The notes under the pieces are model-generated. The model made no database searches. It was given only the letters and a program-made list of their open reading frames with translations, and had not been told where the DNA came from. Shown here piece after piece: positions 711 through 62,117 of a stretch of 64,000 nt of DNA; the stretch's first letter is position 1, and each line of letters opens with the position of its first letter. Position numbers and translations under genes: made by a program. The stretch comes from Psammoneis japonica (lineage: Eukaryota): NCBI GenBank assembly GCA_008632985.1, contig QPGO01000076.1:248001-312000 (forward strand). Direction: 5' to 3'.

Positions 711-2109
711 TGATGTCAGTTCAAGCAGAAAATTGAGTGAAAACTTGCTGATGTCATGGCAAAAGACATCAAAATTGCCATGAGACTCAAGCAGCAGATT
801 TGTTTGTTCAGAATGCACACAGGTCAAAAACCCATCACGGATCTTCTTGACAAAATCCTCTGTCTGAAATTGGGGAGGTGCCCATCTCTTCAAACAAACA
901 AAGGACACATTCTTGATTGCCCAGTGCTCAGTGGGGTGCAACATCCAATTTGACAAAGGTCACCACCAGATGTAGAGATGCAAAAGTGACCAGTCAAATG
1001 TGCTGTCAACCCAGGTTGTGGCAGATGAAAAGCCAAGTGTGTGCTGTCAACCTGAGGCGTGGCCGATGATGAAAAGTTTGGGGTCGACAAGGCTCTTCAC
1101 AAGGGTTGTGTGGCTGTTGTCCATTCCGGCAATGAGAGAGGCACAAAATGCACCAAACTGTCTTGGTTCATTAAAAGAGGGTGCAAAAACCAACTTTGGG
1201 ACATTGATTTTCTCTGCAACATGTGGCGAGTGCTTGTGTTTCAAGCGAACTTCATGTTTGACATGTTTCAATGAACGTCGATGCTGCAATGCATTTTGCA
1301 GTGGCAACAACCGCAAATGGAATGTCACAATGATGCACCAAGAAACAGCGCAGAAATGCACAGTTACAAGCAGCACTGCAGTGTTTGCAACACAAGATGG
1401 CTCATGCCACTTGTGTTGACGCGGGTGAAGTGCATCTTCACTGCACGACAAAGCACGGTCGCAGACTCTACGACAAAATTTGCGCCAGAAAAATTGAGCC
1501 CCCCCTCCCCCCCCCCACCCCCAAAAATGAACCGTGAACAACTTCAATGGGCAATTTTTCACCTGGTGTGGGCAGAGCATTTTGACTGACTTGACTCAAG
1601 CACAGCAAGAGTCAACATGCCAAAGTGGCCTGGGTGTTAAAGTGTTGGAAGGAACACAAAACAGCATCAATGACCGCGGGTGGAGCCGGCAGTGGTGGCA
1701 GCAGAAAGGGCTCTGGCAGAAGAGTGGCCCACATCAAAGGACAAGGAGCTCCATTTGGGGCCAAGTGTGATGCCAAAAAAGAGCTGGAATGAAAGCAGAG
1801 TGCCCGGTCGGTCTTGGCCATTGTCGCGGAAGCACGCTCCAGACAAGAAAGCAAGCATCAGAAAACAAAAAACCGAAATCCATTTTGCCGCTGCCTTGCC
1901 ACAGCCCACACCAACACCGACCACAGCAGACCCACGTTCCCCAGCACCCACAAAGGTCAGCAGGGACAATTCAAACACTGCCAAACATTGTCAGAAAGAC
2001 AGTGCCATCAACATGTTGTCCAAAGGCAATGCTGCCAATGCATCATCAGAAAGAGGCTGTTTGTTCTAAGTCAGAACAGTGCCGACCAGATGCTCGAAGA
2101 ATGGACAAG

Positions 2110-2542
2110 TGCCCTGTGCATGTGCCAGGCGCTGAAAAAGAAGATGTGTTACGACTTTGTCGTTGTGAAAATTATGAGCTAGTTTAGAGTAGAGAAAATG
2201 GGATCGTGCGAATAGGGAATCTTGCCAAATCCCTATTCGTTCGCATTTGGATCGTATTAAATCGATCGTGCGTTCGCATTGTGGATCGTGCGAATCAAGC
2301 CATCACGCGCCATGCACGAGTGATGTCATCGTGTGGAATCACGCTACCATCGTGGGCCAGACGACGGGCTAGTGTGCTTCACACGGATGCTCTCTTAGCA
2401 TCCTTCTGGAATTGCCTAAGACCTAGAGCCACGCCCTCCTGTGGTCGTGCTTCCCAGGTTGCGTGTTGACAACACTGCGTTGCCACGCACAAGAGGCTCA
2501 TGCACGGTCTCGCCGTGGTGTCCAGCAGCGAGGCATGCTGCA
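2110..2542 (-). repeat. Gypsy 3' LTR (433 bp)
   Basis: Near-identical to 7482-7913 and adjacent to the PPT. Confidence 0.93.
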
Positions 2543-2581
2543 CACTCCCCCATGATCAGGGCCGTCAAGTGACAGAATGTC

Positions 2582-5500
2582 TCACTGGTGACAGGGTGCA
2601 ATCTGCCGTAGATTGTGCGTGTCTGTCAGCGCTCCGTTCTGGGTGCGCAACGTGCCATTGTCACATGCACGGACAACTCTGGCGGGTCCTGCACAGCTGT
2701 CAGAACCGCATTTAGAGGATTGTTCCTGTTTGACAAGTGCCAACTGCCCTGCGGTGCATTGACACTCCTTGCGTTTCTGATTTTCACGCTTGTTGTTCAA
2801 GTGGATGAGCTTCTGCTTTCTGGTTTCTGTGTGCTTCCACTTGGCACGATGGGCAATGGACAAAACCGCATCGCGTCCGAAGACCAATTGCGTGGGACTT
2901 GCACGCATGGTCGTGTGCACCGCAGCTCTGACAGCGAAGGCCACTGCGGAGAGGATGCCACTCCATGGGTCATCTTCGTCCAGTTCCACATCCTGCACTG
3001 AAAAGGAACGCACCATGTCACCAAGTGTCTGGTGTGCACGTTCCACTGTGGCATTTGCCTGTGGATTCCGTTTGCTCATGGGTTTCTTCAAAATCCCATG
3101 GTCATTTTTAATCATCTGGCTAAATTCTGCCATAAATTCTGTCCCACGGTCATAAACCACCTGGGTTGGCCACGGACATCTGCGTGGCCACGTTTGTTCC
3201 ACGACGTTTGCTGCGACGTCTGCGCGTTTCGCAGACACTTCTTTAATCTCGAACCACCCGGTTGCTGGGTCAATCATTGTGACTGCCCACAATTGCAAGG
3301 TGTCCTTTCCGCGTCTTTGAATTTTATATGGCCCTGTCACATCCATGCATGGGAGTTTCCCATGGAATTGTCTCTGCGACCTTTTCTGGTGGCTTCCCAC
3401 AACGCTGCGTTCGGCGTTTTGTCTTCTGGCACTTGACGCACGTAGAATGCACCGTAGACCTCATGCCAGGCCAATGGAAGTGCTGGGCAACAGACACTTC
3501 CGCACGTGTCTCACCTGGATGACACAGTGTCTCGTGGTGCCATTCAGTTGGCGGAACCTGCAATGACTGTGGTGCTGCGATTTTGTCCTTATGACAGATT
3601 AACTGTCGTGATGACCCTCCCCCACGATGCGCGCGAATGGAGCAGTCGGACGAGTCCTTGGCTCTTGAGAGTGGGTGCTTGTCCTTTTGTTGTGCTTTTT
3701 GAATGCGCTTGAAGCCAATGGGCAGAGACAGCTCATCTTGAGCATCTGCATTAAAGGCTTCATGCAAAGGACGACTCGATGGAGTGTCCCCCACATCTGG
3801 ATTGGCCTCGGAAGGCAAGCTGGGTGCTGGTCGAAGGCGACTGAGAGCGTCAGCGACTGGGTTGTGGGTGCCCTTAACACAGCGTAATTCGGGACCGCAT
3901 TCTTTGCATGTCAACCGCCAGCACATAACGCGCTCGGCATTGAATGCTTTGTGCGCAAGATTTTTATGATCAGCACATGTGATCATGCGATGACCAAGGA
4001 GAGTCGTTCGAAATTCTTTCAACGTCTCCACAATGGCGAGCAATTCTCTCTCCGTTGTTGTGCAATTTAATTGCGCGCTGTCAAGCTTTCTGCTGCAAAA
4101 GGCGACAGGTTTGTTGTCTTGGGACATGACTGCTCCCAATTGACATTTAGAGGCATCGGCATGTGTCTCAAAGGGTTTGTTGAAATCAGGATGTGACAAT
4201 GAAACATCATCCGATGTCGCCCGTTTGACGGTTTCGAACGCCTCGTCTTCAACGGACGTCCACTCCCACTTGACAGTCTCACTTGCAAGTCGTGTTGGCG
4301 GAGCCAAGACTTCAGAACGTCTGATCCACGTGTCGCAGCAGTGGTTCACCATGCCAACAAATGAACGCAGGTCGCGTTTGTTGGTTGGGGTCGCGATTCG
4401 CTCAATGGCATCGACTTCATTGGGTGTTGGTCGCACTCTGTCTCTGTTGACCAGACAACCCAAGTGTTCCAACTGGGTTTGACAGAAGTGAGATTTGGTT
4501 GCATTGACTTTTGGTCCTGCTTTCTAGACCCTCAATGAAACTTCTTCAAGTTTGTTGAGGTGATCTTCATGGGTGCCTTTCGTCACGACGAGAAGGTCAT
4601 CTAAGTGCGTTCGAACGACAGATCTTCAAACAAGCCTGACATGCATTCTTGGAAAATGTCTGGCGAATTGCATGGTCCCATGGGCAATGCCTGCATCTCA
4701 CACTTGCCCCACGGGAAGATGAGCGTGCAGAGCTTCTTGCTGTCAGTGTCCAATCGGATGTGATGACAGCCCATGTTTAAATCCAGCGATGTGGCCCACA
4801 TAAAGCCTTCGAGCTTGAGTGGCATGTCTTGGACATGAGGAATCGGACAAGGCAATCGCTTGATCCGTTCACTCAGCTCTCTGAAATCATCAATGAAGCG
4901 TGCCGTTAACACGGGATCCGCGGATGCACCAGGGGAATCTGCGAAATGCGGGATGAAAGGGGAAAGGGGCAAATGTGAATGGTGGAAAAGTGACATGCTA
5001 TTATTTTACCTAGAGGGAACCTTTAGTCAGCCAAACACGCTTATTGCCGATTTGACCCTCGTAGGTCCGTCTTTCGAGGTCGTTAAATTGTGAGAGCAGA
5101 CGCGGTCTCTAGAAATAATTTTATATATTTTATTAGACCATTAATATTATATAAATCTGAAAACGACACACATAAAAAAGTGAATTTTCAACTTTATATA
5201 ACCTTCATAGCCATATATATTATATAACGATTAATCCTCAGACGCGTCCGTCACAACATTTTGACACCCCCATAAGACGGACCTGTGATGGTCAGATGAG
5301 AAATGTGCGTGTTCGGCTCACTAAAGGGACCCTTAAGGCACAATGATAGCCCTCACTTTCCCACCATTCCCATTTGCCCTTTCCCTTTCATCCCGCAATT
5401 CCGGTGCACCATGGATCCCGTGTTAAATCTTTCTTCGGTATGATAAATGATGGAGCTGCCCATTGGGATCGGTTAACGCGTTTGAGAACACCGATACGTA

Positions 5501-6211
5501 CTAGGCGCTCTACTTCCTTACGTAGCGTAGCTTCGTACGCACGAGGTACTTTATACGGACGAGCCTGGTATGGTTCTACACCCTCCTTGAGTTGGATATG
5601 GTAGGGTTCTCCCTTCCATTCTCCTAATGTCCCATCAAATAAGGACTCATGGCGTTTCAATAGTGCCAAAAGGTCGTTTTGTTGAACTATAGAAATTCTA
5701 TTGCCCCTCGCGTTATGTCCTCGAGGCAGGCCGGCGCGTACTTAGCGTCTAAAATACGCGAAATCCGGTCGGTTTCCGAAGATAAGGCTTCTGGATCTTG
5801 AAGATAGAAGGAGGTTTCCACCGTAGCATCTACGTGCCTCATTGGTACTTCTCCATTGACTAATGGCCACTCTATCATCTGTTTAGAGAAGACAATATCA
5901 ATGCCTTGTGTCTCCAGAATGTCACGTCCAATAATCATATCGTACTTGCCCAACTTTCCGTTGTGTACGTGGACGGTATGCTTAAGTTCTGCAGTTTCGG
6001 ATAATTCTGGTAACCGAAATTTAACGGTACAGTCGTTAGACGTACTAAACGAGCCTGCTACCGTAGTCCAGTTTGTCTCAGCCGTTGAATGGCTTCGCAG
6101 ACGTTTACAGTATCGACTATCGAGTAGAGTACTGCTAGCGCCACTATCTAGTAGTGCCTTAATAGTTTGAGTCTTGCCCTTGCCATGTTTAGTATTCATA
6201 GCTATAAACAA
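2582..6211 (-). pseudogene. Gypsy pol (protease, RT, RNase H, integrase), frameshifted and interrupted by a MITE
   Basis: Protease ALLDSGASS. RT SQWAAPSFIIPKKD|LTARFIDDFREL, SLDLNMGCHHI, LPMG. RNase H HADASKCQLGAV and TTTERELLAIVE. Integrase HETLCHPG, MIDPATGWFE, YDRGTEF, NPQANATVERAH. Confidence 0.92.
4910..5422. mobile_element. piggyBac-like non-autonomous element (MITE), 513 bp, TTAA TSD
   Basis: TTAA at 4906-4909 and 5423-5426. Imperfect terminal inverted repeats of about 80-90 bp begin CACGGGATCC. AT-rich non-coding interior. Removing the element plus one TTAA restores the RT frame (PKKDLTARFIDDF). Confidence 0.9.
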
Positions 6212-6343
6212 GATTGGAGTAAGATGAGTCTTTTTAACTCGTTTACGGGATTGGCCTACAACACGTGTACGATGGTAATTCAGTTGTTCATTTATGCATT
6301 CATCTAATGTATTAAAACTACCTGTATCGTGTCGGCCCCCTTC

Positions 6344-7393
6344 TCAGGCGTCCGAATCTTCGGAATCACTTAAGTTGAGGTCGCGGAAGTGATTAAGCTC
6401 CTCCTCGCGGGCCTTACGCTTTTTCTGAGCGTTGGCAAAGTACTCCTCGACCTTCGATCCGATGAGAGTATTAATATCTTCCTCATTCCGAGGTTTTGTA
6501 TTAGGCTTGCCGCCTCCGTTATTGGAATGTCCAGTCTTGACACGTTTCACGTGGTGCTTGAGCTGACGGCAATCTTCCGTATCATGTCCACAGTTAGTCC
6601 CGTGTAGTATACACGACTTCTGGGTGTTCCGCTGGGTCGTGATCAACGACTCAGGATTGTCCATTCTACGTCCCCGATTACGTAGAATCTTAGTATGTTG
6701 GTCCTGGTTACCTTCGGTAAGCTCGACCTGCTCGATGCGCTCGCAGAACTGTACAAATTCGGCGATAGTATGCGCCAACGGGTCAAAATTCTGTAGCGTC
6801 ATGAACTTCTGCCATGCGTTCGGCACACCGTACTCGAACATGTCGCATAGTTCGTCATTGGGTGATGGTGCCGGTGCTTCTCCATCCTCCGTCACGGGTG
6901 GAAACTGAGAGACACAGCCGTTAATTTCAACAGCCCTCGCAACGTGGTCACGAGCAGAAACCTCTGCGGGCTTGCGCATGAAGCGCCGCAGATGACGCTT
7001 CTGCAGCAGTGCCGCCCCATTTGGGAAGACACTTTCCTTTAGCTTCGCGACGCATGCTGCGTGCGCAGCGTTGGTTTAGGACGCCTGCTTGTCAGCGGCA
7101 TTGTCAAATGACGTCAGAGCATCGCCCTGCAGCAAGTCACGCACAAGGGCAAATTTCGCTGGCCCGGTCGTGATGTTTTGTCCTTCGTGCGCGTGATCCA
7201 CGTTGCGTGGAAAGATTGGAAGTGTCTCGCATGTAGCCGCAGAAAGGCACGGGATGCCCATCTCGTGCGTTGGACTGTCCGAATCAGCAGGGTTGTTGCG
7301 CAGCTTGAACGTCTGGTGCTCGCCCTGCTGCAGCTCTTTCTTCTCCGGCCGTGCGAACGGAATTGGCGGCTCAACCCGCTTCTTCATGGTCAT
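6344..7393 (-). pseudogene. Gypsy gag with one in-frame TAA (7076-7078)
   Basis: ORFs 7076..7600 and 6344..6979 share a frame. Contains a CILHGTNCGHDTEDC zinc-knuckle-like motif and lies between the 5' LTR and protease. Confidence 0.8.
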
Positions 7394-7481
7394 TTTGAGA
7401 TTTGTCGGTCCCACCAACATTTCGTAGTTTCGTTTCTGTAGATTTCGTTGCCTCGCACAATGTGCGGGAGCAACATTGCTG

Positions 7482-7913
7482 TGCCCCATGCATGCACCAG
7501 GCGCTGAAAAAGAAGATGTGTTGCGACTTTGTCGTTGTGAAAATTGTGAGCTAGTTTGGAGTGGAGAAAATGGGATCGTGCGAATGGGGAATCTTGCCAA
7601 ATCCCCATTCGTTCACATTTGGATCGCACCAAATCGATCGTGCGTTCGCATTGTGGATCGTGCGAATCAAGCCATCATGCGCCATGCACGAGTGATGTCA
7701 TCGTGTGGAATCACGCCACCATCGTGGGCCAGACGACGGGCCAGTGTGCTTCACACGGATGCTCTCTTAGCATCCTTCTGGAATTGCCTGAGACCCAGAG
7801 CCACGCCCTCCTGTGGTCGTGCTTCCCAGGTGCGTGTTAACAACACTGCGTTGCCACGCACAAGAGGCTCATGCACGGTCTCGCCGTGGTGTCCAGTGGC
7901 GAGGCATGCTGCA
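7482..7913 (-). repeat. Gypsy 5' LTR (432 bp)
   Basis: Near-identical to 2110-2542 (transitions plus one 1-nt indel) and upstream of gag. Confidence 0.93.
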
Positions 7914-8899
7914 CAAGCCCAGCCACACCCACTTGGGAGACACAAAAACAAACATTGCAGAAAACCAAACATGTGTCCATCTCCGAAGACACTTTGCTTG
8001 AAGAGAGTGTGAGTGAAATTCCTGGCATGAAACCATCCAGGAAGTCCAACACGGACCCCAACAATGAAAGGAAATGATGGTCGCTGAAAAATGCCATCAT
8101 GTGCAGAATTGTGCAGGAATTGTGTGCTGAAGCTGCAGCATCGAAGTGTGAGAAGAGCAAACACTCAGACCTGGAAATGCTGGCCACTTGAAAGACTCAT
8201 GAAGACCAACTTTGAAGTGCCATGCAGTGTTGATCATGACATTGAATTGCACTGCAAAGAAAACTTGGAGGAAGAACATTGGCAAGAAAAACAAAGGATG
8301 AAACTTGAAATGGTCTTGACTCGAAATTCTGACCAAATGTGCAGAATCGCACATGGAATTTGCACTGAAATGGCTGACTTGGAAATTGCTGAATCATGCA
8401 GAAATTAAAGCAGAAAACATGCTGACACATGGAAAGAAAATGCAAAGAGATGCGACACCATGGCGGTGCCACTCCCCCGAATGCAGACACAACAGAGCAT
8501 CCCCTCTGACACCTTTTGGTTTCTCTGTCATTGGCACAACTGCCCAACGTCCCAAAGTGCCCGAAGAGGTTGGCATGCCACCACACTCTCACATGGGACA
8601 ATCCTGCGGGCGCTTGCGCAGAATTGTGAGCATCAGAAAACAGTCATGGCAGAGCAGCAAGTGGCCAGAGCAAGGGAAAGGCAAGAGGCTTTAGAGCAAG
8701 AATTGATTGACAAGCAAAAAAGAGATGAGGAAAAACAAACTCAGCATGCCTTGTAAAATGTCAAGGCAGCAGCTGCAAAAGAGCATTTGTGTGAGGGGAC
8801 CAAAATCAGAGGGAGGGCACAGTCAGGCAAAACAGGATGTTTCTAGAACAAGCAAGATGCAGAGAGAATTGCCAATCAAGGCAAAAAGCAAAAGCACAT

Positions 8900-36440: not shown

Positions 36441-37787
36441 GTGATCAAACGAGGACTCTCGGAAGTTTCCTTTCGTTTGAGTTTCTCTAGGTAAAAAGAA
36501 ACTTTGTGTTACTAAAATAAAGGTCAGCCGAATGTTGATGGAGAAAGGGTTCAAAACTTTTTCTTAAGGTGTAGCGTAACTTTTTACTGCTTCTATCACT
36601 AACAGCTCCTCTAGCTAGAGAGCAGAAGGGCTCGAAGAGGGCCACCCACAATGATGCCGGCCATGAACGAAGAATGAAAGTTTGTCCGCCAGCCAGTGTA
36701 GTTTGGGGTTTGGCCAAAAACATCACACAAACAGCACTGGAACTTTCGCCGATGATGGCGACAACGGAGAGGGCGCTGCGCACACTCTCATCAGAGATGC
36801 AACATGTTGTGTGATTCCTCAATTCACAATGTCACACCCACCAATGCAAGAGAAGATGAGAGTGGCTCGTCGACACATGGGAGAAGCGCCACACAAATGG
36901 TGCCAAAACCACAGTCCAAGACAGCAATGCCTCAATGCTGTCAACATTGAAACTTGACAAAGTCAAGGCACTCATTGACAAATCCAAACTCAACAATGAT
37001 CTGAAGTGTGGCAAAGGAGGATTTCAAGGAACTTGGGCAGCGGTGCTGTCGCTCCAACAGACATGGCGTGACTCACACACCACCACCTTGAAAAGAAAGG
37101 AGAAGATTGAGCTGCACCTGCATGGGAACAAGGGGCCATTGAAGGAGCTCTTGTGGTGCCCCCAACTGCCTTGCCTCTTGGCTGCTCCAGCACGGCACTC
37201 ATGAGTCAGCTGAGGAAAGAAACACGCAGGAGCACCGCCAATGCCACAAAGCATCATGCCACAGGAGACACTGCACAAAATCTTTGACTCCAAGCCCATG
37301 AATGGCAAATGATGGCAGCATCAAAGACAGCAGCACAGCAGAGTGATGGTGGCACCTGACTCTGAGTGCCAACTTCTCTCTGGCATGCTTTGCATGAGGT
37401 GCTGGTGGAGACAGCTTTTGTTCACCAGCCAATCCCCTCTGCGCCGTTCTGGGGGGTTGGCCCTGGCATCTTCTGGCAGTCAGGACATGGCTCAGAGTCA
37501 ACAACTGCCAGGCAACTCAGAGCTGTGGCAGCGGCACCATGCCACACCTTCATTTTAGGAGCACTGGGGGGTGTCATCTTGACCAGCTTTTGAGACCAGC
37601 CCTCAGTTTGAGGAAGCTTTGCCAGCTGGCACACAGCACACCAGTTTTGATCTGGAAGCTTTTGGGGTGCCTGCCAAGGCTGTCTTGCCCCACCTCATTT
37701 TTGCACTGAGGGGCAACAATCTGCACACTTTTTCTCTTCCTTCTGCCCATGCACAGGCTCAGAACTGAGGTCTGCATGCAGCAATTG

Positions 37788-38063
37788 TGACAGGATTTGA
37801 ACAGGATTTAGGTGCGCGCGAAGCATCGCGCGCTGTTTAGTTTACCGTGCACAGTTTTGTGTGCTTTAGTTCCACGCGTTCACGCGCGATGTAGTTTGCT
37901 TTCGAGCCACAAGGCTCACAAGAATAATGACAGTAGCCCGATTATACCGACTCACACGTCTTTCGGCTCCTGTAACGGTCTCTGAGCGGAGACTCATCTG
38001 CTATTTAGACAGCAGTAAGGAGTTATTGTTTGAATTCTTGCCATTTGCCTTCAATTTCTGTCA
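37788..38063 (+). repeat. Copia 5' LTR
   Basis: Differs from 44607-44882 by 14 transitions (hand count). Confidence 0.95.
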
Positions 38064-38989
38064 GATTAACAGTCTTGCTCATTGTCAACCCATTGAGCAA
38101 CCGCCATCGTCGTCGTTGATTTACCAACGACGCTATTTCAATTCTACGTGGACCCCGTATATATCCTACATACATCGGCAAGTCTACGCGCATTCAATAC
38201 CAGGGCATCGGCAGGAAGTTAACGTCACCGTCAAGTCTCCTTACCGCTGGATATCTGGATTGATTATACTACCTTTGATCGCTGAAGACATACATTCAAC
38301 GGTCATATCCAAGTCTATCCTTGATCATCATCCCTTGATATACCTGTTCATCGGTTAACGGTCAAGAACCCTACATATTCAAGGATCTTCGTCGCTGAAG
38401 ACATATATATATATACATGTCTTCACGGCCAAGAACCTGTACCCACTCTTCGGACTGCGGTTTTGCCACCACTCTACAAGCACACCGAGTCCATTGTACC
38501 TGATCTACCCCGGACCACTGGTGCTCTACAGTTCTACTAGGTCCACGAGGACGACTGTGAGAGCAAGCAGCCGTGATTGCAGCCTGCGTTGGGGCGAGGG
38601 TGCTTTCCCGCGTTTGTTCGTTCGTCCACAGCGCCTGATGCCTGCGTCAACTGGCCAGCCTGATCGGGAAATCCAACCGATGTAAAACAAGAATGGTTCG
38701 GGGGTCTTGTCCACCTCTGGTCAGCTTGCCTGCAGGGGTTTGCAACCCGCTGCTCCGCTCGCAAGCAACCCAAAGCGCCGCCAGCTGCGGGCTCGGACGT
38801 GCCGGCACAACTCTACGGACCGGATGGGAAGTTTGGCACTTGACAACGAACGGGATGACAAAGCCCGGCGACTTCTGATTTTAAGACAGTTCAAGATTTC
38901 AAGTCAAGTCTGTTTCAAGTCAAGTCCATTCTCACCCAAGTTTCGAGTCCATCTTCTCTTTGACTGTCCTGACACCACCTTTGTCTGCC

Positions 38990-41900
38990 ATGGTTCTCAC
39001 TCGTCAGCAACAAACCGATGGTTTCGAGCACGTGGTTGGAACCGTGCTTGCCCAAGGTGCTGGGAGTCCTCTTCGTTTGGCTTTGGCCCAAGACGGCACG
39101 GACTCGCATCAGGAACTGTTCACGTTCATGCCGTCCCAAATCGACTCGCTTGAGTGCGACAACGGCGCCAATGCAATCCCTTTGCCCCGTGGTCATGAGA
39201 ACATGTCAGCAGCACTGGTCAGTCTGTGCATTGTCAAAGCACACAAAGGTCTTGACGTTGCCAATGACTCCTCTTTGTTCGCGCATGATGAGTTCCTTGC
39301 CTGCCGCCTCAGCCCCGACTGCATGTCTTCTGTGTCCATCGGCAGCTCACCCCTTGCACCTCCACATGTCACCAACCCGACCAAGGCACGCGACCCGGTG
39401 CGGGACTTCAAGCGAGGCATCAAGCATGATCCCACCGCTTTCACGGCTCTCAAATCCGACAAGCAGTGGCACACTTGGCACACCTCACTTGTGGCACAAG
39501 CCCGTGCCCAAGACGTCGAGTGCATTCTAGACTCGTCGTACAAACCGACCAGCCCCGAAGACAAACTGCTCTTTGCTGAACAGCAAAAGTGCATGTTCGC
39601 CGTCTTCGAACGCATCCTTCTCACCGACAAGGGCAAGGCTCTCATTCGCGAAAATGTGGGGTCTTCTGACGCACAGACCGTCTGCCGCTCCTTGTCTGAG
39701 TGCGCGCTTGCCTCCACCCGCGCATCTGTCGAGTCCTCCACCCTGCTCACGCACCTCACCACCGCGCGTCTTGGTGATGGCACTTGGAAAGGTCCGACCC
39801 ACGGGTTCATCCTTCATTGGCAAGATCAGTTGCGCAAGTGCGAGGCACTCATCCCGGCCAGTGACCACTTCTCTGAAGGACAGAAGCGCATCATGCTCGA
39901 GAATGCCGTGCACCCTGTCGAGGAACTCCGTGCTGTCAAGAACCAAGCTGATCAGCATCGCACGCAGAGTGGCAAGAGCCTCACATGCGATCAACACTGT
40001 GGCTTGCTCCTCTCCGCCGCAGCTCAGCACGACAGCACATTTCAACCCAAGACGACACCTCGAGCTCCCCGACGCGCCACACACGCACATGACGTCTGCT
40101 CCGAGGAACCGTCCGACGATGTGTTCTACGACATTGACAGCGACGTTGACATCCTTCAAGCCAATGCTGCCTGCACCCGCGGTCCCAGCCTCACCGGTGT
40201 CCAATGGAGACGTCTCCCTCCCGACCACCAACGGCTCTGGAATTCGTTGCCCGATTCCTCCAAGGCGATCATCCTTGGGCATTCTCGTCCACCTCCCCGC
40301 AACCCGCGAGCCAGCAACTGCCATGAGTCTGTTACGGCCAACCTTCATGACCAACGCCTTGGGAGTGACGGTGATGTCAACTTGTCCAACACGACTCCTG
40401 CTGACTCTGGTGACTCCGCTCCACATGTGGACGCCACTTCGGACAATCCCATCCTGGCGCACCTCACCAAGCGCAAGCCACTGCCACCCGGTGATCTGCA
40501 ACGTCTGTTGTCTCCTAACCAAGCCCCCAATGCCAGTCGACCGGGGCCATCCGCCGCTTCCTCTATCCCGCCAGCTTCTGCAGATGACATGGAACTCAAC
40601 GGTCGCACTTGCCGCCGCGTTGACAACCACAATGTCATTTGCTCTGCTTCTGCTCATCGCTCCACACGCACTGGCACTCTAGTCGATCGTGGGGCCAACG
40701 GCGGCATTGCTGGCGATGACGTTCGCGTCATTGCACGCACCTCTCGCCAAGTCGACGTTCAGGGCATTGACGATCATCAATTGGTGGACATCCCCGTTGT
40801 CACCGCTGGTGCCGTCATTGAGACCCAGCGTGGTCCCGTCATCGCCACACTCCATCAGTGCGCATGCACGGGCAAGGGCAAGACCATCCATTCCTGCGAC
40901 CAGCTTGAATGGTGCAAACAGGATGTCAACGATCGCTCTGTCAAGGTGCCCAACGGCTTGCAACGCATTGCCACTCCTGATGGCTGTGTCATCCCCATTG
41001 ACATCAAGGCTGGCCTGCCTCATGTTGCCATGCGACCTCACACTGACGCCGAATGGGACACCCTGCCCCATGTCATCCTCACCGGTGATGACACATGGGA
41101 CCCTTCCGTCCTCGATCACTCTGTCACTGACGACGACCAGTGGTGCGACGCGATCTCTGACCTGCAGGACGATCCCACTGCCAACCCATTTGACGAACAC
41201 GGCAACTACCGTCATCGTGTCGTTGTCAACGAGACCATCATGTCCGCTTCCTTGTCTGCCGATCACGCGTCCGCCCTCGATGATCACCTCATTCCGAACG
41301 ACGACGTGTTCTACGAGTGTCATCTGCATGCGATTGGCCCCCAGGGCGATGATGTTCCACCTCCGGAGCGCACTGCACAGCCCAAGGACCCCCCCTTCGA
41401 GTCTCTTCGGCCTCACTTTGGCTTCCTACCTGCCGATGCGGTCCGTCGCACTTTTGACTGCACCGCGCAGTGCGCCCGCATGCCCGCCGGTGCACACCTT
41501 CGCAAGGCCTGCAAATCACCCAACCCCGCCCTTAATGTGCACCGCCGCAATGAGCCCATCGCCACTGACACCGTTCATGCCGACACCCCGGCCATCGACT
41601 CTGGTTGCACCAGCGCCCAACTGTTTGTTGGCACCGAGTCTACCGTCACTGACGTCTGCGGCACTGAGACGGACAAAGAGTTTGTCAACACACTCGAGGA
41701 TCAGATCCGTGTGCGTGGTGCCCCATCCAAACTCATTGGCGACCGTGCTCAAGTTGAGATCAGCAACAAAGTGCTCGGGATCCTACGCACCCTCTTCATC
41801 TCTAGCTGGCAAAGTGAGCCTCACCAGCAACACCAAAACTTTGCCGAGCGTCGACACCAGACCGTGAAGCGCATGGCAAACACTGTCATGGATCGTTTTG

Positions 41901-44659
41901 GTTCGCCCGCCCACACATGGCTGCTGGCGCTCATGTGCGTGTGCTTCATGCTCAACCACACAGCGTCCCCACGTCTCCACTGGCGCACGCCCCTTGAGAC
42001 TCTCACTGGCTCCACCCCGGACATCAGCCCATTGCTTCGCTTTCACTGGTGGGAACCCGTGCACTTCCACCTCGATGACTCCGATTGGCCGTCCGAATCC
42101 CGTGAGTTGCGTGGACGCTTCGTTGGCATTGCTGAGCACGTCAGCCACCAGATGACCTTCAAGATTCTATCTGACGAGAATCAGAAGATCCTCTGCCGGT
42201 CCAACGTCCGCTCCGCTACCCCCGATCCTGCCGTCTGAAACCTGCGTCTTGATCCTCCTGATGGGGAGCCACCTGAACCCATCATCAAATCTCGCCATGA
42301 CGACAACCCCGTCGACTCTCCTGATGGGGAGATCAGGACACCCAAGATGCCAGTTTTCGATCCGCAAGACATCATTGGACGCACCTTCCTCATGCAGCCA
42401 CAAGAGGACGGACAACGCCACAGAGCTCGCATCGTCAAGGCCGTCGAAGACCACGAATGGAAAGTGAACGGCAATCCCGAGCTCACTAAGTTCGTCTGCT
42501 CTGTCAACAATGACGAATACGAGGAAGTCCTTGCCAGCAATGACATCATGAATCACATTGAGCAAGAAGACGAAGACACCACTGTTTGGAAATTTTGACG
42601 CATCGTGTCACACGAAGGACCTCTGAAGCCTCACGACCCAACCTGGAAAGGCTCCAGCTACAACATCATGCTTGAATGGGAAAGTGGGGAGATCACGTCC
42701 GAGCCTCTTGCCATCATCGCCAAGGATGACCCCATCACCTGTGCCATCTGTGCACGAGAGAACAGACTCCTCGACACGGATGGCTGGAAGCGGTTCCGCA
42801 CCATCGCGAGGCGCCAAAAGAAGCTGTTTCGCATGGCCAACCAAGCCAAGCTTCGCTCCTTCCGCACTGCACCTCGCTGCAAGTGTGGATGCGAAGTTCC
42901 CCGGAACTGCAAACACGCCATGTCACTAGACGAACGCAACGGCAACCGCAAGTGGGGAGACGCAACTAATCTCGAGATGGACCAACTCGACGAATACGAA
43001 GTCTTCCATGACTGCGGGCCCTTCAAGTCTTCCACTCCTCCTGCGGGACACAAGAAGATCCGAGTGCACCTGGTGTGCGACGTGAAACACGACGGTCGCC
43101 ACAAGGCACGACTCGTAGCCAACGGGCACCTCACGGACACACCCATCGACAGTGTCTACTCCGGAGCAGTCTCCCTCCGTGGCCTTCGGCTGATGATTTT
43201 CCTGGCCGAACTCAACGAGTTGGAGACATGGGCCACCGACATTGGCAATGCCTGCCTTGAAGCCACCACCAAGGAGAAGCTTTACATTGTAGCTGGACCC
43301 GAGTTCGGCAAACTCGAAGGACACATCCTTGTCATCCACAAGGCACTGCATGGACTGCGCAGCTCCGGTCTCCGCTGGCACGAGCGCTTCGCTGACTGCC
43401 TGCGAGCTGAAGGCTTCTTCCCCTGCCGCGCCGAACCCGACATTTGGATGCGCAGGAACGGCGACCACTGTGAATGCATTGCCGTTTATGTGGATGACCT
43501 CGCCATTGCCATGAAGGACCCTCAATCTTTCGTCGACACCCTCACGGAAAAGCACAAGTTCAAGCTCAAGGGTGCGGGACCCATTGAGTTCCATCTGGGT
43601 TGCGACTTTTCCCGGGAACCCGACGGAACCTTGTGCCTGTCTCCGCGCAAGTACATCGAGCGCATGGTCGACAGCCATGCCCGACTGTTTGGGGAGAAAC
43701 CCACCACCAACGCCCTGTCACCTCTAGAGAAGGGTGACCACCCCGAACTGGACACTTCCGAACTGCTGGGACCCGATGGCATCCACAAGTTCCAGTCTCT
43801 TGTTGGTTCACTCCAATGGGCAGTGTCCCTTGGTCGAATTGACATCACCACGGCCGTCATGTCACTCTCTAGCTTCCGAGCTGCGCCCCGTCAAGGCCAC
43901 TTGGATCGTGCCAAGCGCGTCTGTGGGTGCCTCTCCAAGATGCGACACGGTGCTCTCCGCGTTCGCACGGAAGAGCCCGACTGTTCGGATCTCCCTGCTC
44001 CGGCCTGTGAATGGATGCATTCCGTGTATGGTGAAGCAGAAGAGATGATCCCGAAGGACGCTCCACCGCCCCTTGGCAAGTTCGTCACTGCCACCCACTA
44101 CGTCGATGCAAACTTGCACCATTGCATGCTCACCGGACGCTCTGTCATGGGAATGCTCCACTTCCTCAACAAATTCCCGGCTGATTGGTTCTCTAAGAAA
44201 CAAGCCACCGTGGAGACTGCGACCTGCGGGTCTGAATTTGTTGCTGCAAGGACTTGTGTTGAGCAGATTGTCGACCTGCGCATCACCCTGCGCTGCCTTG
44301 GCGTCCCGATCCGTAACGTTAGTTACATGTTCGGTGACAACAAGTCGGTTGTAGACAGTGCCACCATCCCGCACTCCAAGTTACACAAGCGACACACCGC
44401 ACTGTCGTTCCACCGTGTGCGTGAGGCAATTGCCTCTGGTTGCCTTGAGTTCCACTTCATCGAAGGCTCCCGCAACCCTGCTGACATTCTCAGCAAGCAT
44501 TGGGGTTGCTCCCAAATCTGGGACCTTCTCCGCCCCCTCATGTTCTGGAACTTCATTCCATCCGAAGTCGAATCTGTTTCTGTGGCTCCTCAAGCAAACT
44601 GGGGAGTGACAGGATTTGAACAGGATTTGGGTGCGCGCGAAGCATCGCGCGCTGTTTAG
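38990..44659 (+). pseudogene. Copia gag-pol polyprotein (protease, integrase, RT, RNase H) in one frame with two TGA stops (42236, 42596)
   Basis: LVDRGANGG (protease). ATDTVHADTPA, GDRAQVE, QNFAERR (integrase). HKARLVA, TDIGNACL, LHGLRSSG, YVDD (RT). YVDAN, SEFVAA, GDNKS, NPADILSK (RNase H). ORFs 38960, 42347 and 42605 share a frame. Confidence 0.93.
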
Positions 44660-44882
44660 TTTACCGTGCACAGTTTTGTGTGCTTTAGTTCCGCGCGTTC
44701 ACGTGCGATGTAGTTTGCTTTCGAGCCACAAGGCTCACAAGAATGACAACAGCAGCCCGATTGTGCCGACTCACACGTCTTTTGGCTCCTGCAACGGTCT
44801 CTGAGCGGAGACTCATCTGCCATTTAGACAGCAGCAAGGAGTCATTGTTTGAATTCTTGCCATTTGCCTTCAATTTCTGTCA
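44607..44882 (+). repeat. Copia 3' LTR
   Basis: Direct repeat of 37788-38063, preceded by the PPT. Confidence 0.95.
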
Positions 44883-45099
44883 AATTGCATCACTTGCAGA
44901 CCTGCAGTTGTCGAAACAGCAGCACATTTGCTCATTTGAAGCAAAAAATGAAGTGCTCAGCAACCTCACACGTGCTTTCATCACAAAAAAATTCAAGCCA
45001 TTTGTCTTTGCAAACTAATTTGCAACTCATGAATTTTGCGTTTCAGCAGTCAGAGAGTGCTTGTAGAAGTGGAAAGCAGCTCACATTGTTGTGTTGTCA

Positions 45100-51724: not shown

Positions 51725-53617
51725 GTGACTGAAGCCACGATTCGATGCTCAGACCAAAATGAAGAGATGTAGCGTTTTCCTTATTCAAACTTTTTGCCAG
51801 CTGCGGTCTGTCAAGAATCACTTTAGTAAACACAGGAACGACTGAAGGGCACGTTGTTTCAACTCGATGTCAAGCGAGGGAGGGGAGATCGAGAACGCGA
51901 TGGTGCGTGATATGATTTTTTGTGAGGGCGGTGTTGCTTTGGCCCATGAGAGGATCAGACAAATTAGTGACCCACCAAAGTCATTCATAAATGACCTGGT
52001 CATTTTGATTTAACAGAGGAACCCTTGCTAGAGAAAGATCATTAAATGCTGTTTCCGTTCATCAGGCATCGCAGACATTTTGTTGCCGTCGGTCGTCCTG
52101 AATTTCGTGACCCGAACACAATTCGCCCACATCTCTCGCTGCACCACCAAAGAATTGCTGCAGCTTAATTTCTGCACGGGAATTCTAGCATGGATCTGAC
52201 AATCGAAGTAGTTGTCAAACAAGTTGAGCATGGCTTGGACAGTTGCCATGCAAATTTGTGTCATTGTTTTGGAGCAGCATCAGCAGACAAGGAGCAAGGC
52301 TGCTTCTCCTCAAAGTTTTTCACGTTTGCTGTTGTGCTGGATGTGCCAACGGCACTGCCTTCAACAGGCAGATGCATTCTCGTGTCATCCGTTGATTGAT
52401 TCTTTCCAATCATGTGCTGCGCAGCTCATGGTGGGGGCTGCCCTGCCCTGTTTTGACAAAAGTTGTGTTGGCAGCAAAGGCTCCAACAACAAGAAGCCAC
52501 CCGCACTCTTTGCACTTTGAAGGCTGCCACTGAGCTGGGAGGGGGGGTGTCAGAGGATCTTGCCAAGCAAAAAAAACAGAGGTGCAGCAAAGAAGGTGCA
52601 GTGGGAGACTTGGGGCACAAACCCAAACCCAGCATTGTGGCGCAGCTCACCAGGTGAGCAGGGCTGTCTCAAAAACAAAGAGCGACCAAGTTGACAGACA
52701 GCTCTGCTGCAAAGATCTTTTCAAGATCAGCATCTTTGCAAGTGTGTGGGAGAAACTCTGCCAAGCTCTTCTGTGGCTTTTTGCTTCAAACAACAGCCAT
52801 GCCACGGATCTCTTTGAGCTTGTTTTGCAAGAGCACACCACTTGCTTGTCCCAAATGATGGGCAACTCCGCGGTGCTTTCTCTGTTTGCCAATCATGGCT
52901 TCATTGCACAGCAAGCTGGCCATGAGCAAGCTGGGCAAGCCTTGCTCTGGTGACATTCTTCCACAATCCTCCAGAGCATCCACTTGCCACCTTGAGCCAG
53001 GGTCGTGCCCTGCTGGTGCATCGCCACATGGCGGCATCTCTTCTGTGCCCAAAGGAGTGTGCAGCAGTCAGCCACCCAACCAGGCATCCAAAAAGTCTTC
53101 CAAGGACAGTGCCTTTCCTTGCACAAATCATGAGAGGTGGCCATTGTGCACTCCAAGAAGCAAAGGTGGCAAGAGAGCCAAAGAAGTCCATTTGCGTGCA
53201 GGCCTTCACAGTCAGATGTTGTTGCCCAAGTGCAGCTGCGGTGGCGTGGATCAAAGCCATGTCAAGCGCGACGACGGACAACGGTAGACGTCAAACTGAA
53301 AATCTCGCCATGCTCGTTGGGAGACACTCTAGCTAGATAAACATGTGGAGAAGCCCGCATCGTGTATGGTGCAAAGCAAAGCGCCGGCTATCGACTCCAG
53401 TCACAGTGGGGAGCTCACAAAAGAAGGAACAATTTGCATCGACGGATGCGAACACCTTTGTGAGTAGCGCACAGCCTTTTCATAGCGTTTTCAATAAATG
53501 CATCAATATAGGGAATTATAGACAGTATGAAAGATTGGTGAATCGGCCCGCTCTCACTTCTCAGTTCATCCAACAATAAATATGCGAATGCAAAGCTTGC
53601 AGTGGACTTTCTTCCCG

Positions 53618-56146
53618 TTATTGAACCCTTCTTTCTCGGTAGTATCCATGACAGTCGCTTGGATCCTGGCCGACATCAAGATTCAGACGCGGCAGTTCCT
53701 TTTCTTGCGTAACAATATCATGAACAAGGACAGTGTGCCTCTTCATGGTCATAACATCATTGTCGAACACGAGACTTCGGGCATCCATATTTGAGTAGCT
53801 CCAACAGCCGCCCATGATTTCGGTTCCATCGGCGTGTGAAATTGAGAAACGAGGAGCGATTTCGTCCACTGAAACATTGTAGACGAAGAAACCGTCAAAG
53901 GGTTCCTCTTTGTCATATCTTGATCCCCACTGTGTAACAGGAATGATCAGGACCTTGTTAATATCGAGGTAACGAAACGCCTGATGGTCATACTCGGCTG
54001 AGCTCGAAGCATGATCGTCGACGAAGTTCTGCAGTCTACGCGGATTTGCAAGGTCCGCTACATCGAAAAGAGAGATCTGCAGGCCACCACGCCACCCTTC
54101 ATCAGGATCAACATACTGACCAACCCCAAGAATAACCGATCCATCTATTGGGTGGAGGTAACTACTGTAGCCAGGAATCTTTAGCTCGCCAACCATTGAC
54201 GGATTGAATGGATCGCTCATTTCAATCGTGTAGAAAGGATCTACTTGCCGGAACGTTACGACAAAGCCACGAAGATCGATAAACCGGACAGAGTAAATGC
54301 GTTCTGTGACACCGAGGCCGTCTACCAAACCCACTGTAGTCAAGTTGGAGCTACTACCTTCAGTCGGGAGAGACAAGACCGTGACCTGGCTCGATGATGT
54401 GTCACGAGGACGCCAGAAAAGAGGTCCACCTTGCAACGCATTATCCTGCTCCCATTCTGTCTCTTTTGTGGTAGCAACGCGCAAATAGTCGATGCCATCA
54501 ACTTGGTAAACGTCCAATGAGAACTGATTCAAGACATAACCAGGAACGCTTCCAACGGCCACGGCGCTGGTGGTCGCATTAAAGAACTCAAACACAAATA
54601 AAAACGTTTCCTCGTTCCAGACGCTTCGCCTCACTTCATTCCATCCTTGAGATGACATTATGAGAAAGTTCTTGCTGGCATAAATGGTGCTGAGCCGGTT
54701 TGACATAAACAAACTTTTGGTGGATGTCGGAAAGCTAGCCTCGTTAACATCATTCACATCGAAACTTGTTGTAAAGGTCACATGTCCAAGGACCTGGTGG
54801 TCTGCAAACCATAGCTCGTGCATGTCAGTCTCGTTGAAATCCGAGGTCTGCAAAAGAGCAAGTCGGACAATGCCGTCACATGTGGAACTTTCCGTAGCGT
54901 CCAAAATTTCATCTCGCAGCTTGCGAGCAAAGAACTCCAGTTTTTCTTCCACCATAGCTTTGGCCGCATTTCGGAACGCATACTCGGGAAGGTCTCGAGG
55001 ATATAGGGAGAAATCATATCGATCGACAAAGCTCAAGAATGATTTGTAACTGTCAATGTCTCTGGATGTGATGATGTGAATGAACTGGCCAATTGCTCGA
55101 CCATTCAAGTACATCCCTGGGATATCTCTTCTTCCCATGAGTGACAACGGTGATCCATCCGTTGGAATATTTGAAACGTCGTAGACATATACTCTTGTAC
55201 TCTGCGGTGACAAAATGGGGTGCAAATCATCTGCGGGGTCTGAATATCCTGGCTCATAGAAGGAGCACTCTCCTGATGCGATCACGACGAGTTGCTCATC
55301 ATGGAGCAATAGGCCTGCAATATTTGAATAGCAGTGAAACGAGTCGCCTCTAATTGAATTCTCGTCTTCTTCTATTACAGTTCCAATGTTCTCCATTTCT
55401 TCCAAGCTGACAATTGGGATCCTTGTGCGGCTTTTGAGTTCAAGTGTCTTCACCTCCCACACTACAACCTCGTTGCCATATTTAGCAAAGACATGGTTCC
55501 CATCTGACTTGACAGAGTCAGGTTCATCCACGCCCTCGACCTGATTGTTCGAAAGGAAACTATCTTCACCACCGCCAGATTCACCACCGCCAAATGTAGG
55601 TGTCCCTGGTGATGGCATTGCATTTTCCGTTGGCGCACCAGTTTCACATCCCCAGCATCCTCCGCCTAACCCGTAGTGGTACCACCTATCGTGATAGTAC
55701 GCTTGAGCACCGGTTTCGATCGCAAAATTAGCCATGTACTTGAGAGCGAGACGTAAATCGTTCTCAAACTCGCTGCAGTTCTTGTATGGCTCCAAGATCT
55801 CTGGACCAAAACCGTTCAGTTCTACTGCAAAGGAACCGCCGCCGGCCGAATCGCCACCTTCGTCCTTGGTAAGCCCAAAGCCGAGTCCAAACGCCAAACC
55901 CACAGCTGCGACTAGAACGATCAAAACACCAACAACGGACTTGGGTCTCTGCATAATTCTCTGTAGAAACGATTTCGGCTGAAGGGTGTTGTCGAGTTCT
56001 TCGAGATTACTTCTCGCCGATTCCAAGATTTCTTTGTCGTCTTTCGAGATAGTGCTCTGCTTCATTTCCTCTTTAGCAACTCCTACATCGATGGCAACAT
56101 TGCCAGCTTCGGCGTCACTTTCGTTCTCTGTTACTTCCATCATCAT
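53618..56146 (-). CDS. Membrane-anchored beta-propeller domain protein (Beta_propel/PF09826-like), 842 aa, copy 1
   Basis: N-terminal TM helix. NNQVEGVDEPDSVKSDG, VLNQFSLD, LRVATT, ERIYSVRF, VTFRQVDPFY, GELKIPGYSSYLHP. Confidence 0.88.
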   Translation of the reverse strand: MMMEVTENESDAEAGNVAIDVGVAKEEMKQSTISKDDKEILESARSNLEELDNTLQPKSFLQRIMQRPKSVVGVLIVLVAAVGLAFGLGFGLTKDEGGDSAGGGSFAVELNGFGPEILEPYKNCSEFENDLRLALKYMANFAIETGAQAYYHDRWYHYGLGGGCWGCETGAPTENAMPSPGTPTFGGGESGGGEDSFLSNNQVEGVDEPDSVKSDGNHVFAKYGNEVVVWEVKTLELKSRTRIPIVSLEEMENIGTVIEEDENSIRGDSFHCYSNIAGLLLHDEQLVVIASGECSFYEPGYSDPADDLHPILSPQSTRVYVYDVSNIPTDGSPLSLMGRRDIPGMYLNGRAIGQFIHIITSRDIDSYKSFLSFVDRYDFSLYPRDLPEYAFRNAAKAMVEEKLEFFARKLRDEILDATESSTCDGIVRLALLQTSDFNETDMHELWFADHQVLGHVTFTTSFDVNDVNEASFPTSTKSLFMSNRLSTIYASKNFLIMSSQGWNEVRRSVWNEETFLFVFEFFNATTSAVAVGSVPGYVLNQFSLDVYQVDGIDYLRVATTKETEWEQDNALQGGPLFWRPRDTSSSQVTVLSLPTEGSSSNLTTVGLVDGLGVTERIYSVRFIDLRGFVVTFRQVDPFYTIEMSDPFNPSMVGELKIPGYSSYLHPIDGSVILGVGQYVDPDEGWRGGLQISLFDVADLANPRRLQNFVDDHASSSAEYDHQAFRYLDINKVLIIPVTQWGSRYDKEEPFDGFFVYNVSVDEIAPRFSISHADGTEIMGGCWSYSNMDARSLVFDNDVMTMKRHTVLVHDIVTQEKELPRLNLDVGQDPSDCHGYYRERRVQ

Positions 56147-60162: not shown

Positions 60163-62117
60163 ATGCCAACACTGCAGAAAAGTTTGCCAATGGACAGCTC
60201 ATTGCAATGTGCCAGCTTGGCATTCTGAATTCTGGGTGGCTCTTTGACAGATTTGTGACAGCACACTTGCAAGCATGAAGCTCAAGAGATGGCCCAATCA
60301 AAACCCATCTTGACCAACCAGAAGGACAGCAGGTCTCATCACATGTTCAGCTGCTGTCATCAGCTGATGGGGCAAAGTCTTTTGCTGCCATGGCAGGTTG
60401 TTGACATGCAGATTTGCAACAACGTGCAGAATGCACATGAGCCACAACAGCGCACACTCTTGCTTTTCAATGTTTGGGGAGAGGGTGTGCTGTCATGAAG
60501 TGTGCAGAAAATTGCACATGCAAAAAATGCTGAAAATGCTGTGGACCACCAACGGGCTGTGCAAATCTGGGAAGCATGAAAAATTTAAGGTGGGGGTGGA
60601 AGAGTGCGTGCGTGAGGTGGGGTGCACACATGCAAGGACACACAAACATGAGTGGTGAGTGGGGAGGACAAAGTTAAAACAATGCTCAGCTGACGACCAT
60701 CAAAAGAGGAAAAAGCAAACCATGTCTCAAAAAAAGGTGCAAACACCAATTGAGTTGAACATTGTGTGCATTTGATTGAAGCTTGTGTCAGAAAAGCCAA
60801 TGAGACACAAGAAGAAATGCAGAAAACAAGTGCATTTTGTTGAGCTGCTGCTGGCATTTTTCAAATTTGACTTGTTGGCAATTTTAACAGCATGTGTGCA
60901 AACATTTACAAAGGAAAGTGGAGACCCCTTTGTCAGTCTGAAACTCTTTTTTGACCTGGCACTTTGTTGTGACTGCCTTGCCAGTCAAAGAGCACAACAG
61001 CTGTCCTGAGTGCAGAAAGTGGAAGTTCATTTCAATGCAAGAAATGTGCTGGCTTTGGCAGCAAGTGCAAGTGTGTTGTTGCCTGGGAAAGTGTGCTGGC
61101 TGTGTTGTCAAAAGCAAGCATTTGCAGAGAAACACTGTTCATTGTTCATGGGCACATCCTCTTTGTTGTGTTTCACAGCTTTGTGCTCACCCTGCCACAG
61201 AATCCTCCTTGTGGCTTGCACTGCAAGCACCAGAGTTCCAGGGTTGGCAAGCACCACATTTGGCAGAGGGTCTCTTCTGCATCATCAGCAACAGACTTTT
61301 TCATGCCAGCAAAGCACGGGCTTGTTGGCTTGAGCCCCTGCTTGTGTTTGATTTGGCTGAAGTCCTGGACATGCAGGAGCAACTCCAGCAACCATCGTGG
61401 ATGTGCTTTGAAAGCTGTTGCAACAGCAAATGTAAAAAATTGTGAGCATCATCATCAGAACAAAGATTGTGAGACATCATTTTTCATCCTCAAAGACCGA
61501 CCCCACACAGAATTGCGAGCTGAGAATGAACTTCAACATCCATGACATGTGACACCAGATGGCTGCACCCCACCCACCGGCACTCCTGGAGAGCAGGTGG
61601 AAATCCTCCATCTAATTTACAACGTGCCGTGCATGCAGGAGAAGACTGGATCACGGCAACAATGTCGCAGCAATCATGACAGGATCGCACTTTGAGTCTT
61701 GTGACGGCTGGTGAGCACGACTGGGGCAAGTTGTGACAAACTTAACACAAAGCACTGAAGACTGGTGTGAATGGGGAACTCCTGTCAAAGGTCATCATGG
61801 TCAGATGTGACAGCCCAAGTGCAGCTGCGGTGGCGTGGATCAAAGCTATGTGAAGCGCGACGACGGACAACGGTCCACGTCAAACTGTAAATCTCGCCAT
61901 GATCGTTGGGAGACTTTAGATTAAAATTTCGAGAACGATCCTGCAAAGCGCCGGCTATCGACTCAGTCGTAGTGGGGAGCTCACAAAGAAGGAACAAATC
62001 CATCAATATAGGGAATTATAGACAGTATGAAAGATTGGTGAATCGGCCCGCTCTCACTTCTCAGTTCATCCAACAATAAATATGCGAATGCAAAGCTTGC
62101 AGTGGACTTTCTTCCCG

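Follow-up and report, generated by a model that had tools for sequence, protein, structure and literature searches.

Repeat-induced point mutation (RIP) of fungi is a dinucleotide-specific, saturating mutation of repeats that acts on both strands and makes TpA. For a mutator directed at TpA itself the source so far is a single preprint on Bigelowiella natans, an unrelated alga; its main text reports A>G/T>C changes confined to TpA, on both strands, in integrated viral DNA, with TpA-poor sequences enriched in transposon domains (Mettrop et al., bioRxiv 10.64898/2026.01.13.699255); a term search of that main text finds no diatom, island, promoter or retrotransposon. According to the available parts of two further sources, CG methylation of transposons depends on DNMT5 in the diatom Phaeodactylum tricornutum (PMC9998398), and VANC, a protein of DNA transposons whose targets are often tandem repeats in non-coding regions, causes a sequence-specific, family-wide loss of methylation in the VANDAL transposons of Arabidopsis (PMC5735166). 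Here we describe a Ty3/Gypsy long terminal repeat (LTR) retrotransposon of the diatom Psammoneis japonica, located in a stretch of 64,000 nucleotides (the window, positions of which are used throughout) of the 91.4-Mb assembly. Most named homologues of one gene of the window come from diatoms (Cylindrotheca, Seminavis, Entomoneis, Thalassiosira and Skeletonema). Most TpA has gone from the repeat DNA of the window, with TpG and CpA raised, and one zone inside the Gypsy element, beside a miniature inverted-repeat transposable element (MITE), has escaped. This zone holds a fixed position across the family, is independent of the MITE, consists of original DNA, fades in both directions and has also escaped CpG decay. 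We consider it probable that a protected site borne by the family, and not the MITE, spares the surrounding DNA from a TpA mutator acting after insertion. The features concerned are as follows.

2110..7913, minus strand: Ty3/Gypsy LTR retrotransposon, with a 4-bp target duplication on both sides
2110..2542, minus strand: 3' LTR, TpA partly retained in the window copy
2550..4905, minus strand: integrase, RNase H and part of the reverse transcriptase (RT), TpA-erased, 3/141 mutable sites kept
4910..5421, no strand: MITE of 512 bp, non-coding, with terminal inverted repeats and TTAA at 4906-4909 and 5422-5425, unmutated
5426..6850, minus strand: spared island (RT N-terminus, protease, 3' part of gag), 81/84 mutable TpA kept
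5687..6343, minus strand: aspartic protease open reading frame (ORF), in frame after the gag stop codon at 6344-6346
5732..5778, no strand: candidate protective centre, from rearranged copies (post hoc, chance ~0.011)
5739..5943, no strand: core common to 34/34 fitted islands, from the family fit
6859..7480, minus strand: 5' part of gag and leader, TpA-erased, 0/25 kept
7482..7913, minus strand: 5' LTR, TpA-erased
37787..38560, plus strand: spared zone of a Copia 5' LTR and leader, for comparison, recurring in the Copia family

The Gypsy element possesses the two LTRs, TG...CA ends and short target duplication of an LTR retrotransposon, and its Pfam matches run on the minus strand in the Gypsy order (RVP, RT_RNaseH, Integrase_H2C2, rve); the RT core was recognised from the translation alone, and gag had no match in the Pfam scan. 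The protease ORF directly abuts the gag stop codon in frame, like readthrough-type gag-pol junctions.

TpA occurs 24 times in the 2356 bp left of the MITE (2550-4905; observed/expected ratio 0.18), 36 times in the 512 bp of the MITE (4910-5421; 0.88), 109 times in the 1435 bp of 5426-6860 (1.09) and 6 times in the 620 bp of 6861-7480 (0.21), the island differing from both flanks with a Fisher p of 1.7e-29. Of the sites found mutated in sister copies, 3/141 are kept in the window copy on the left, 81/84 in the island and 0/25 on the right, and the RNase H ORF has 0 tyrosines in 399 amino acids, the protease ORF 5 in 218. The right edge lies between site 6848, the last kept, and 6859, the first lost; on the left, 4901 is the last mutated site, and since the MITE has no TpA before 4999 this edge can be placed only within ~100 bp. 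The unmutated island inside the window Gypsy is thereby confirmed. It had been described from the letters alone in the original prediction, whose account of a TpA-erased RT left of the MITE, a TpA-rich MITE with the next ~1.4 kb, and depletion again near 6860 is borne out by the four ratios; the peptides quoted there (MGCHHIRL, GKC(EM), EPYHIQL, PYQARPYKVPRAY and GKYDMIIG) are all present on the minus strand, and the TATA-like tracts of the MITE lie at 5148, 5195 and 5221. That the island starts at the MITE holds as to the island, but its left edge may fall anywhere in the ~100 bp from 4901 to 4999.

The TpA columns of the first 58 aligned copies of the family hold TA 6153 times, TG 6632, CA 6858 and CG 58, which amounts to one transition per TpA site, on both strands equally. 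Derived states agree between copies at 0.61, equal to the 0.61 expected from site bias, and the LTR pair of the window copy differs at 16 TpA-type, 2 CpG-type and 1 other of 434 positions. The mutation was therefore made on DNA, after insertion and copy by copy. A>G changes outside TpA columns number 7-13 per kb. TAC and TAT (hazards of 2.14 and 1.98) mutate ~3x faster than TAG and TAA (0.81 and 0.63), a preference that picks out no single enzyme; the genome has five matches to the deaminase family PF14437, which are tRNA-deaminase-like, and such genes are widespread (12/14 controls). ADAR or APOBEC editing at the stage of RNA or complementary DNA was rejected, as a one-strand bias and matching LTRs would be expected and neither is seen.

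Judged by its sequence pattern, this signature matches the TpA hypermutation of B. natans, whose ongoing rate is put at ~1000-fold above background. The two share the A>G/T>C change at TpA, its occurrence in both strands and integrated chromosomal DNA as the target; the present case differs in that the host is a diatom, the mutation is near-saturating on LTR elements and MITEs, and fixed zones are spared. Like RIP, it is specific to a dinucleotide, hits repeats in both strands and goes to saturation, but the direction is opposite: RIP would create TpA via C>T, whereas here TpA is destroyed. RIP sparing, which is confined to unpaired single-copy DNA, was likewise rejected, because the spared zone sits at 86 places; the missing pairing partner offered earlier as an explanation of the patch falls with it, and since a region with 85 partners is spared, homology alone is not the trigger. 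Beyond the B. natans preprint, no report of a diatom TpA mutator or of fixed spared zones was found in a literature search of limited sensitivity that left subscription papers uncovered.

Counts across the family rest on a census with a 20-mer free of mutable sites (one mismatch allowed, so that more diverged copies are missed), because earlier sets of copies had been chosen by similarity and were biased. The 20-mer is found at 86 places in the genome, all of which were aligned; two copies, L076 and L078, are without it. Four duplicate-like copies (L059, L060, L075 and L117) were excluded from the island fits, the CpG decay, the marker-sharing tables, the linkage and the composition and subfamily tests. 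At 5626-5825, 39/77 other copies retain 60% or more of their TpA, compared with 4-13% in every bin outside 4510-6425. The core is kept and the flank mutated in 30 copies including the window; both are kept in 6, both mutated in 44, only the flank is kept in 4, and 2 are without a flank. All of the fitted islands (34/34) nest on 5739-5943, with lengths from 346 to 2075 bp, and retention declines from 0.98 at the centre to ~0.6 at -500 and at +200 to +300 bp and to at most 0.11 from +900 bp. The left and right reach of the islands correlate (rho 0.50, p=0.004, n=31). By their LTR pairs, island copies and other copies are of equal age (6.7 vs 6.2 other differences per kb). Selection on the protease was rejected as the cause: the copies are dead elsewhere, and TpA appears to be kept whatever the codon position.

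Sparing is seen elsewhere in some copies. The 3' LTR is partly spared in 9/53, and a rarer second spared tract covers the end of the integrase and the 3' LTR (window-equivalent 2300-3500) in L070, L074, L119 and L131. Five little-mutated copies (L033, L035, L078, L040 and L126) have a core more mutated than its flanks.

The same census bears on the MITE, which the original prediction had supplying a promoter or insulator that shields the right flank. Such a shield would suit the window island being the most intact (81/84) and among the longest rightward, and the TATA-rich MITE may still contribute to the strength of this copy; we nevertheless regard it as very unlikely to be the source of protection. 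The core is at least half kept in 36/85 other copies, and in 30 of these no insertion was detected in 4400-6900, some of the 30 being covered over part of that interval; three copies (L029, L030 and L031) extend equally far right with no MITE. The 19 full-length copies of the MITE family end in TTAA or mutated forms of it, with terminal inverted repeats and no coding capacity. At 21 other MITE loci, 13 MITEs are mutated, and 0/8 of the unmutated ones are flanked at 0.3-1.4 kb, on one side or the other, by DNA with normal TpA, contrary to the expectation that other insertions would protect theirs; this flank test is weaker than the census because young MITEs landing on already mutated flanks cannot test protection. 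Short TA-rich MITE flanks in L002 and L008 stop, by eye, at the termini of enclosing MITEs. Beside a related unmutated insert in L053 only 1/24 and 0/14 sites are kept, and in L068 a mutated MITE of the same family lies at the other edge of the island, where 21/25 sites are kept on the near side and 0/12 on the far one; L089 and L034 contain inserts that likewise separate a kept near side from a lost far side.

The window copy follows the latter pattern. Sites 4870, 4891 and 4894 are kept in 6/6 MITE-free copies that reach right to 6690, and all three are lost in the window, where the left reach counted through the MITE is 756-854 bp, compared with 373-875 bp in MITE-free long-reach copies. 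Among the other island copies the median left edge is 4848, only 61 bp away from where the MITE inserted, and 11/31 edges lie within 100 bp of that site. To judge from these alignments, the MITE behaves as a passenger and spacer in a field of limited reach, apparently cutting protection on the far side, a warning that MITEs found at the edges of islands are passengers; a role as insulator at the far end of the MITE may look the same here as a spacer role. Insertion of the piggyBac type at TTAA prefers active chromatin, according to the available part of PMC5333637, and with the shared TTAA target duplication a landing in an open zone would fit; the MITE differs in that no transposase partner was found (a search for an autonomous piggyBac partner gave 36 end matches, and two unpaired ends examined among them were short relatives without a transposase ORF by eye). 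Across copies L033-L131 there are 37 insertions of ~20 small DNA-transposon types, and their enrichment in the zone (18/37, p=0.008) is lost without the window and one six-piece copy (12/31, p=0.15).

Whether the island DNA was spared in place or replaced was addressed with 37 marker pairs picked in control copies only, with one marker inside the island and one outside. The sign of linkage is retained in 30 of the 31 computable pairs in island copies, many of the remaining pairs being low-powered; markers 5981-3299 have r 0.73 in island copies (p=1.5e-4; control 0.73) and markers 5981-6877 r 0.82 (p=9.5e-5; control 0.84). Because island markers remain linked to their own far flanks, the island DNA is, on the linkage evidence, each copy's original sequence, spared in place. 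The principal alternative is gene conversion from an unmutated donor, with a fixed hot spot near 5750-5900 and variable tract lengths, which would also produce tracts nested on a common core and low internal CpG decay, and which could be read into the 50 consecutive derived states that L041 and L075 (contig C184) share at 6580-7652. We hold it to be unlikely. Island-to-flank linkage is as tight as in controls, and a rare core allele (2/27 island copies), found in the window and L029, travels with flank alleles of the same subfamily. Sharing among mutated cores is not in excess (concordance 0.603; 5/659 pairs above 0.88, four of them resembling duplicate pairs), private non-target C>T changes number 1.09 per kb in islands vs 1.19 in other copies, values that may be inflated by assembly errors, and the sites of scattered loss within islands read TG in some cases and CA in others. 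Gene conversion as first proposed thus fails for transfer from an arbitrary sister copy; a same-subfamily or allelic donor remains compatible with the linkage data. Transversions are higher inside islands (48/22900 vs 66/66037), a difference probably inflated by consensus errors and not relied on as an age clock. The run shared by L041 and L075 is either a partial duplication or a conversion tract, and L041 alone has the island.

Three contig sets from one sample were compared with the assembly. At three places where read contigs are identical to the window (28, 28 and 6 assembly copies), each assembly copy accounts for a depth of 46, 56 and 52, near the single-copy depth of ~47-55; the four intervals whose letters differ yielded 9-129, values that do not allow comparison. 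The depth fits the assembly's count of unmutated copies, and the family-level island is therefore present in the reads. An assembly chimera or polishing artefact, the remaining alternative named at the outset, might be suspected because none of the 8 listed of 613 X1 pieces spans the whole stretch and because, next to read contigs or sister copies, the window is missing one base at each of three places (near 5266, 5349 and 5695; probably consensus errors); it is nonetheless extremely improbable, as at family level it fails on depth and census, and the window island bears its own subfamily alleles. The continuity of the window copy rests on marker linkage, since no listed piece bridges mutated to unmutated DNA. 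One X2 contig, from a run of unrecorded nature, covers 6287-6716 and ~7425 and omits 708 bp at a 4-base microhomology; the junction does not have the form of a canonical splice, and none of the loci examined for it carries the joined sequence.

The islands have also escaped CpG decay. Across the family, 55/2110 CpG sites have decayed inside islands (2.6%) vs 872/6623 outside (13.2%); in the same columns the figures are 40/1273 (3.1%) in island copies vs 182/1197 (15.2%) in others, and in the window copy 1/96 in the island vs 19/195 outside (p=0.005). The genome has 27 matches to the cytosine-methyltransferase family PF00145, several of them broken or clustered (C297, C10). The escape from CpG decay, the CG methylation of diatom transposons and the presence of methyltransferase genes together suggest that the islands are unmethylated. 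The DNMT5 system of Phaeodactylum would supply a known diatom mark whose absence would explain the low CpG decay; it differs in that neither a TpA mutator nor an unmethylated zone within an element appears in the available part of PMC9998398. Since CpG decay declines together with TpA loss inside islands, the earlier proposal that the mutator follows chromatin or transcription state gains indirect support as to chromatin. One family offers 86 natural replicates, in which the mutator is active once a copy has inserted, takes no account of copy number and halts at fixed sites where CpG decay halts too, a pattern that favours targeting by chromatin or methylation over homology counting or editing at the RNA stage.

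Rearranged copies narrow the position of the protective centre. The island is kept in L067, which is without everything up to 5731, in L123, which is without 5779-5993, and in L089, which is interrupted by an insert at 5887, and 5732-5778 is the only interval retained by all three; among copies without 5732-5778, 0/7 have an island (chance ~0.011, post hoc; L122 was omitted, its alignment being in pieces). These copies point weakly to 5732-5778 as the protective centre. Protection by a site in cis can be set against a small-RNA or other homology guide with a gap over the zone, such that the zone would be reached only by spreading from its sides. RNA guidance of the TpA mutator is raised as a possibility in the main text of the B. 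natans preprint (bioRxiv 10.64898/2026.01.13.699255), and a fixed position with graded edges would suit erosion from both sides; a gap acting in trans should, however, spare all copies, whereas 44/86 are mutated through the core at equal age. Copies that lack 5732-5778 in cis lack the island as well, and islands are not clearly smaller in older copies (against flank CpG decay, rho -0.37 and p=0.052), so that we find such a guide improbable.

In the mechanism that we propose for a family-borne site, a host diatom mutator acting on DNA would convert TpA to TpG or CpA in inserted transposon copies, working only on methylated or silenced chromatin. A site near 5730-5900, in the linker between protease and RT, would bar it from the surrounding 0.35-2 kb in ~40-50% of copies, and the spared zone would be unmethylated, its chromatin kept open by an internal promoter or by a factor bound there. 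The MITE would have entered a TTAA ~330 bp from the centre, fallen under the zone and pushed RT DNA beyond its reach. More tentatively, as one possibility among several, a short cis-element within 5732-5778 may recruit a factor made by the host or the element that actively keeps DNA methylation and the TpA mutator away, making it a retrotransposon anti-silencing site. The effect would be that of VANC, a family-wide, sequence-specific loss of methylation in a transposon, as far as the available part of PMC5735166 describes it, the loss here being read from CpG decay. The Gypsy centre differs in lying in coding DNA without tandem repeats: no 7-mer occurs more than twice in 5501-6150. Nor was a VANC-like protein found, although no search aimed at one was made. 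If the proposal is true, an anti-silencing cis-element leaves a permanent mutational footprint, from which protected sites could be mapped genome-wide by sequence alone; the result names a 47-bp interval and makes a clear methylation prediction.

Several observations weigh against a family-borne protected site or its placement. In about half of the copies the centre is present but an island is not, and the effect of subfamily is weak (35/58 vs 5/18, p=0.029) and confounded with age. The 47-bp interval was identified post hoc, from 3 + 7 rearranged copies; its composition is ordinary, with no compositional feature to mark it, scans for B-box, TATA and MCB found none in the core, and Rfam gave 0 matches in 2000-8000. 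An SCB/E2F-like word at 5757 is the only one in the element, but it is absent from 4/34 islands of ordinary size and so is not necessary; at 4334-4392, too, there are CGCG clusters, but no island. As a mark, low CpG decay is indirect and would also follow from recent replacement, and five little-mutated copies have 6-13% CpG decay with most TpA kept, so that one decay does not always accompany the other. The 5' LTR of the Gypsy itself is seldom spared (5/67).

A parallel is found in the Copia element of the window (37787-44886), a 22-mer of which occurs at 221 places. Its 5' LTR and leader are spared and its 3' LTR is not (TpA 14 vs 5). In a sample of 20 copies, one in five from the first 100 of the 221 places as listed, the 5' LTR and leader zone is kept in 6-7 of 19-20 and the gag bins in 0-2/20, and CpG decay is 10/313 in kept bins vs 224/1871 in mutated bins. 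This zone lies at the promoter position, which supports the reading of the spared zones as regulatory sites. Elsewhere in the window, 53200-53792 and 61789-62292 form a direct repeat 8.5 kb apart, a duplicated region of a host beta-propeller gene that is not TpA-erased.

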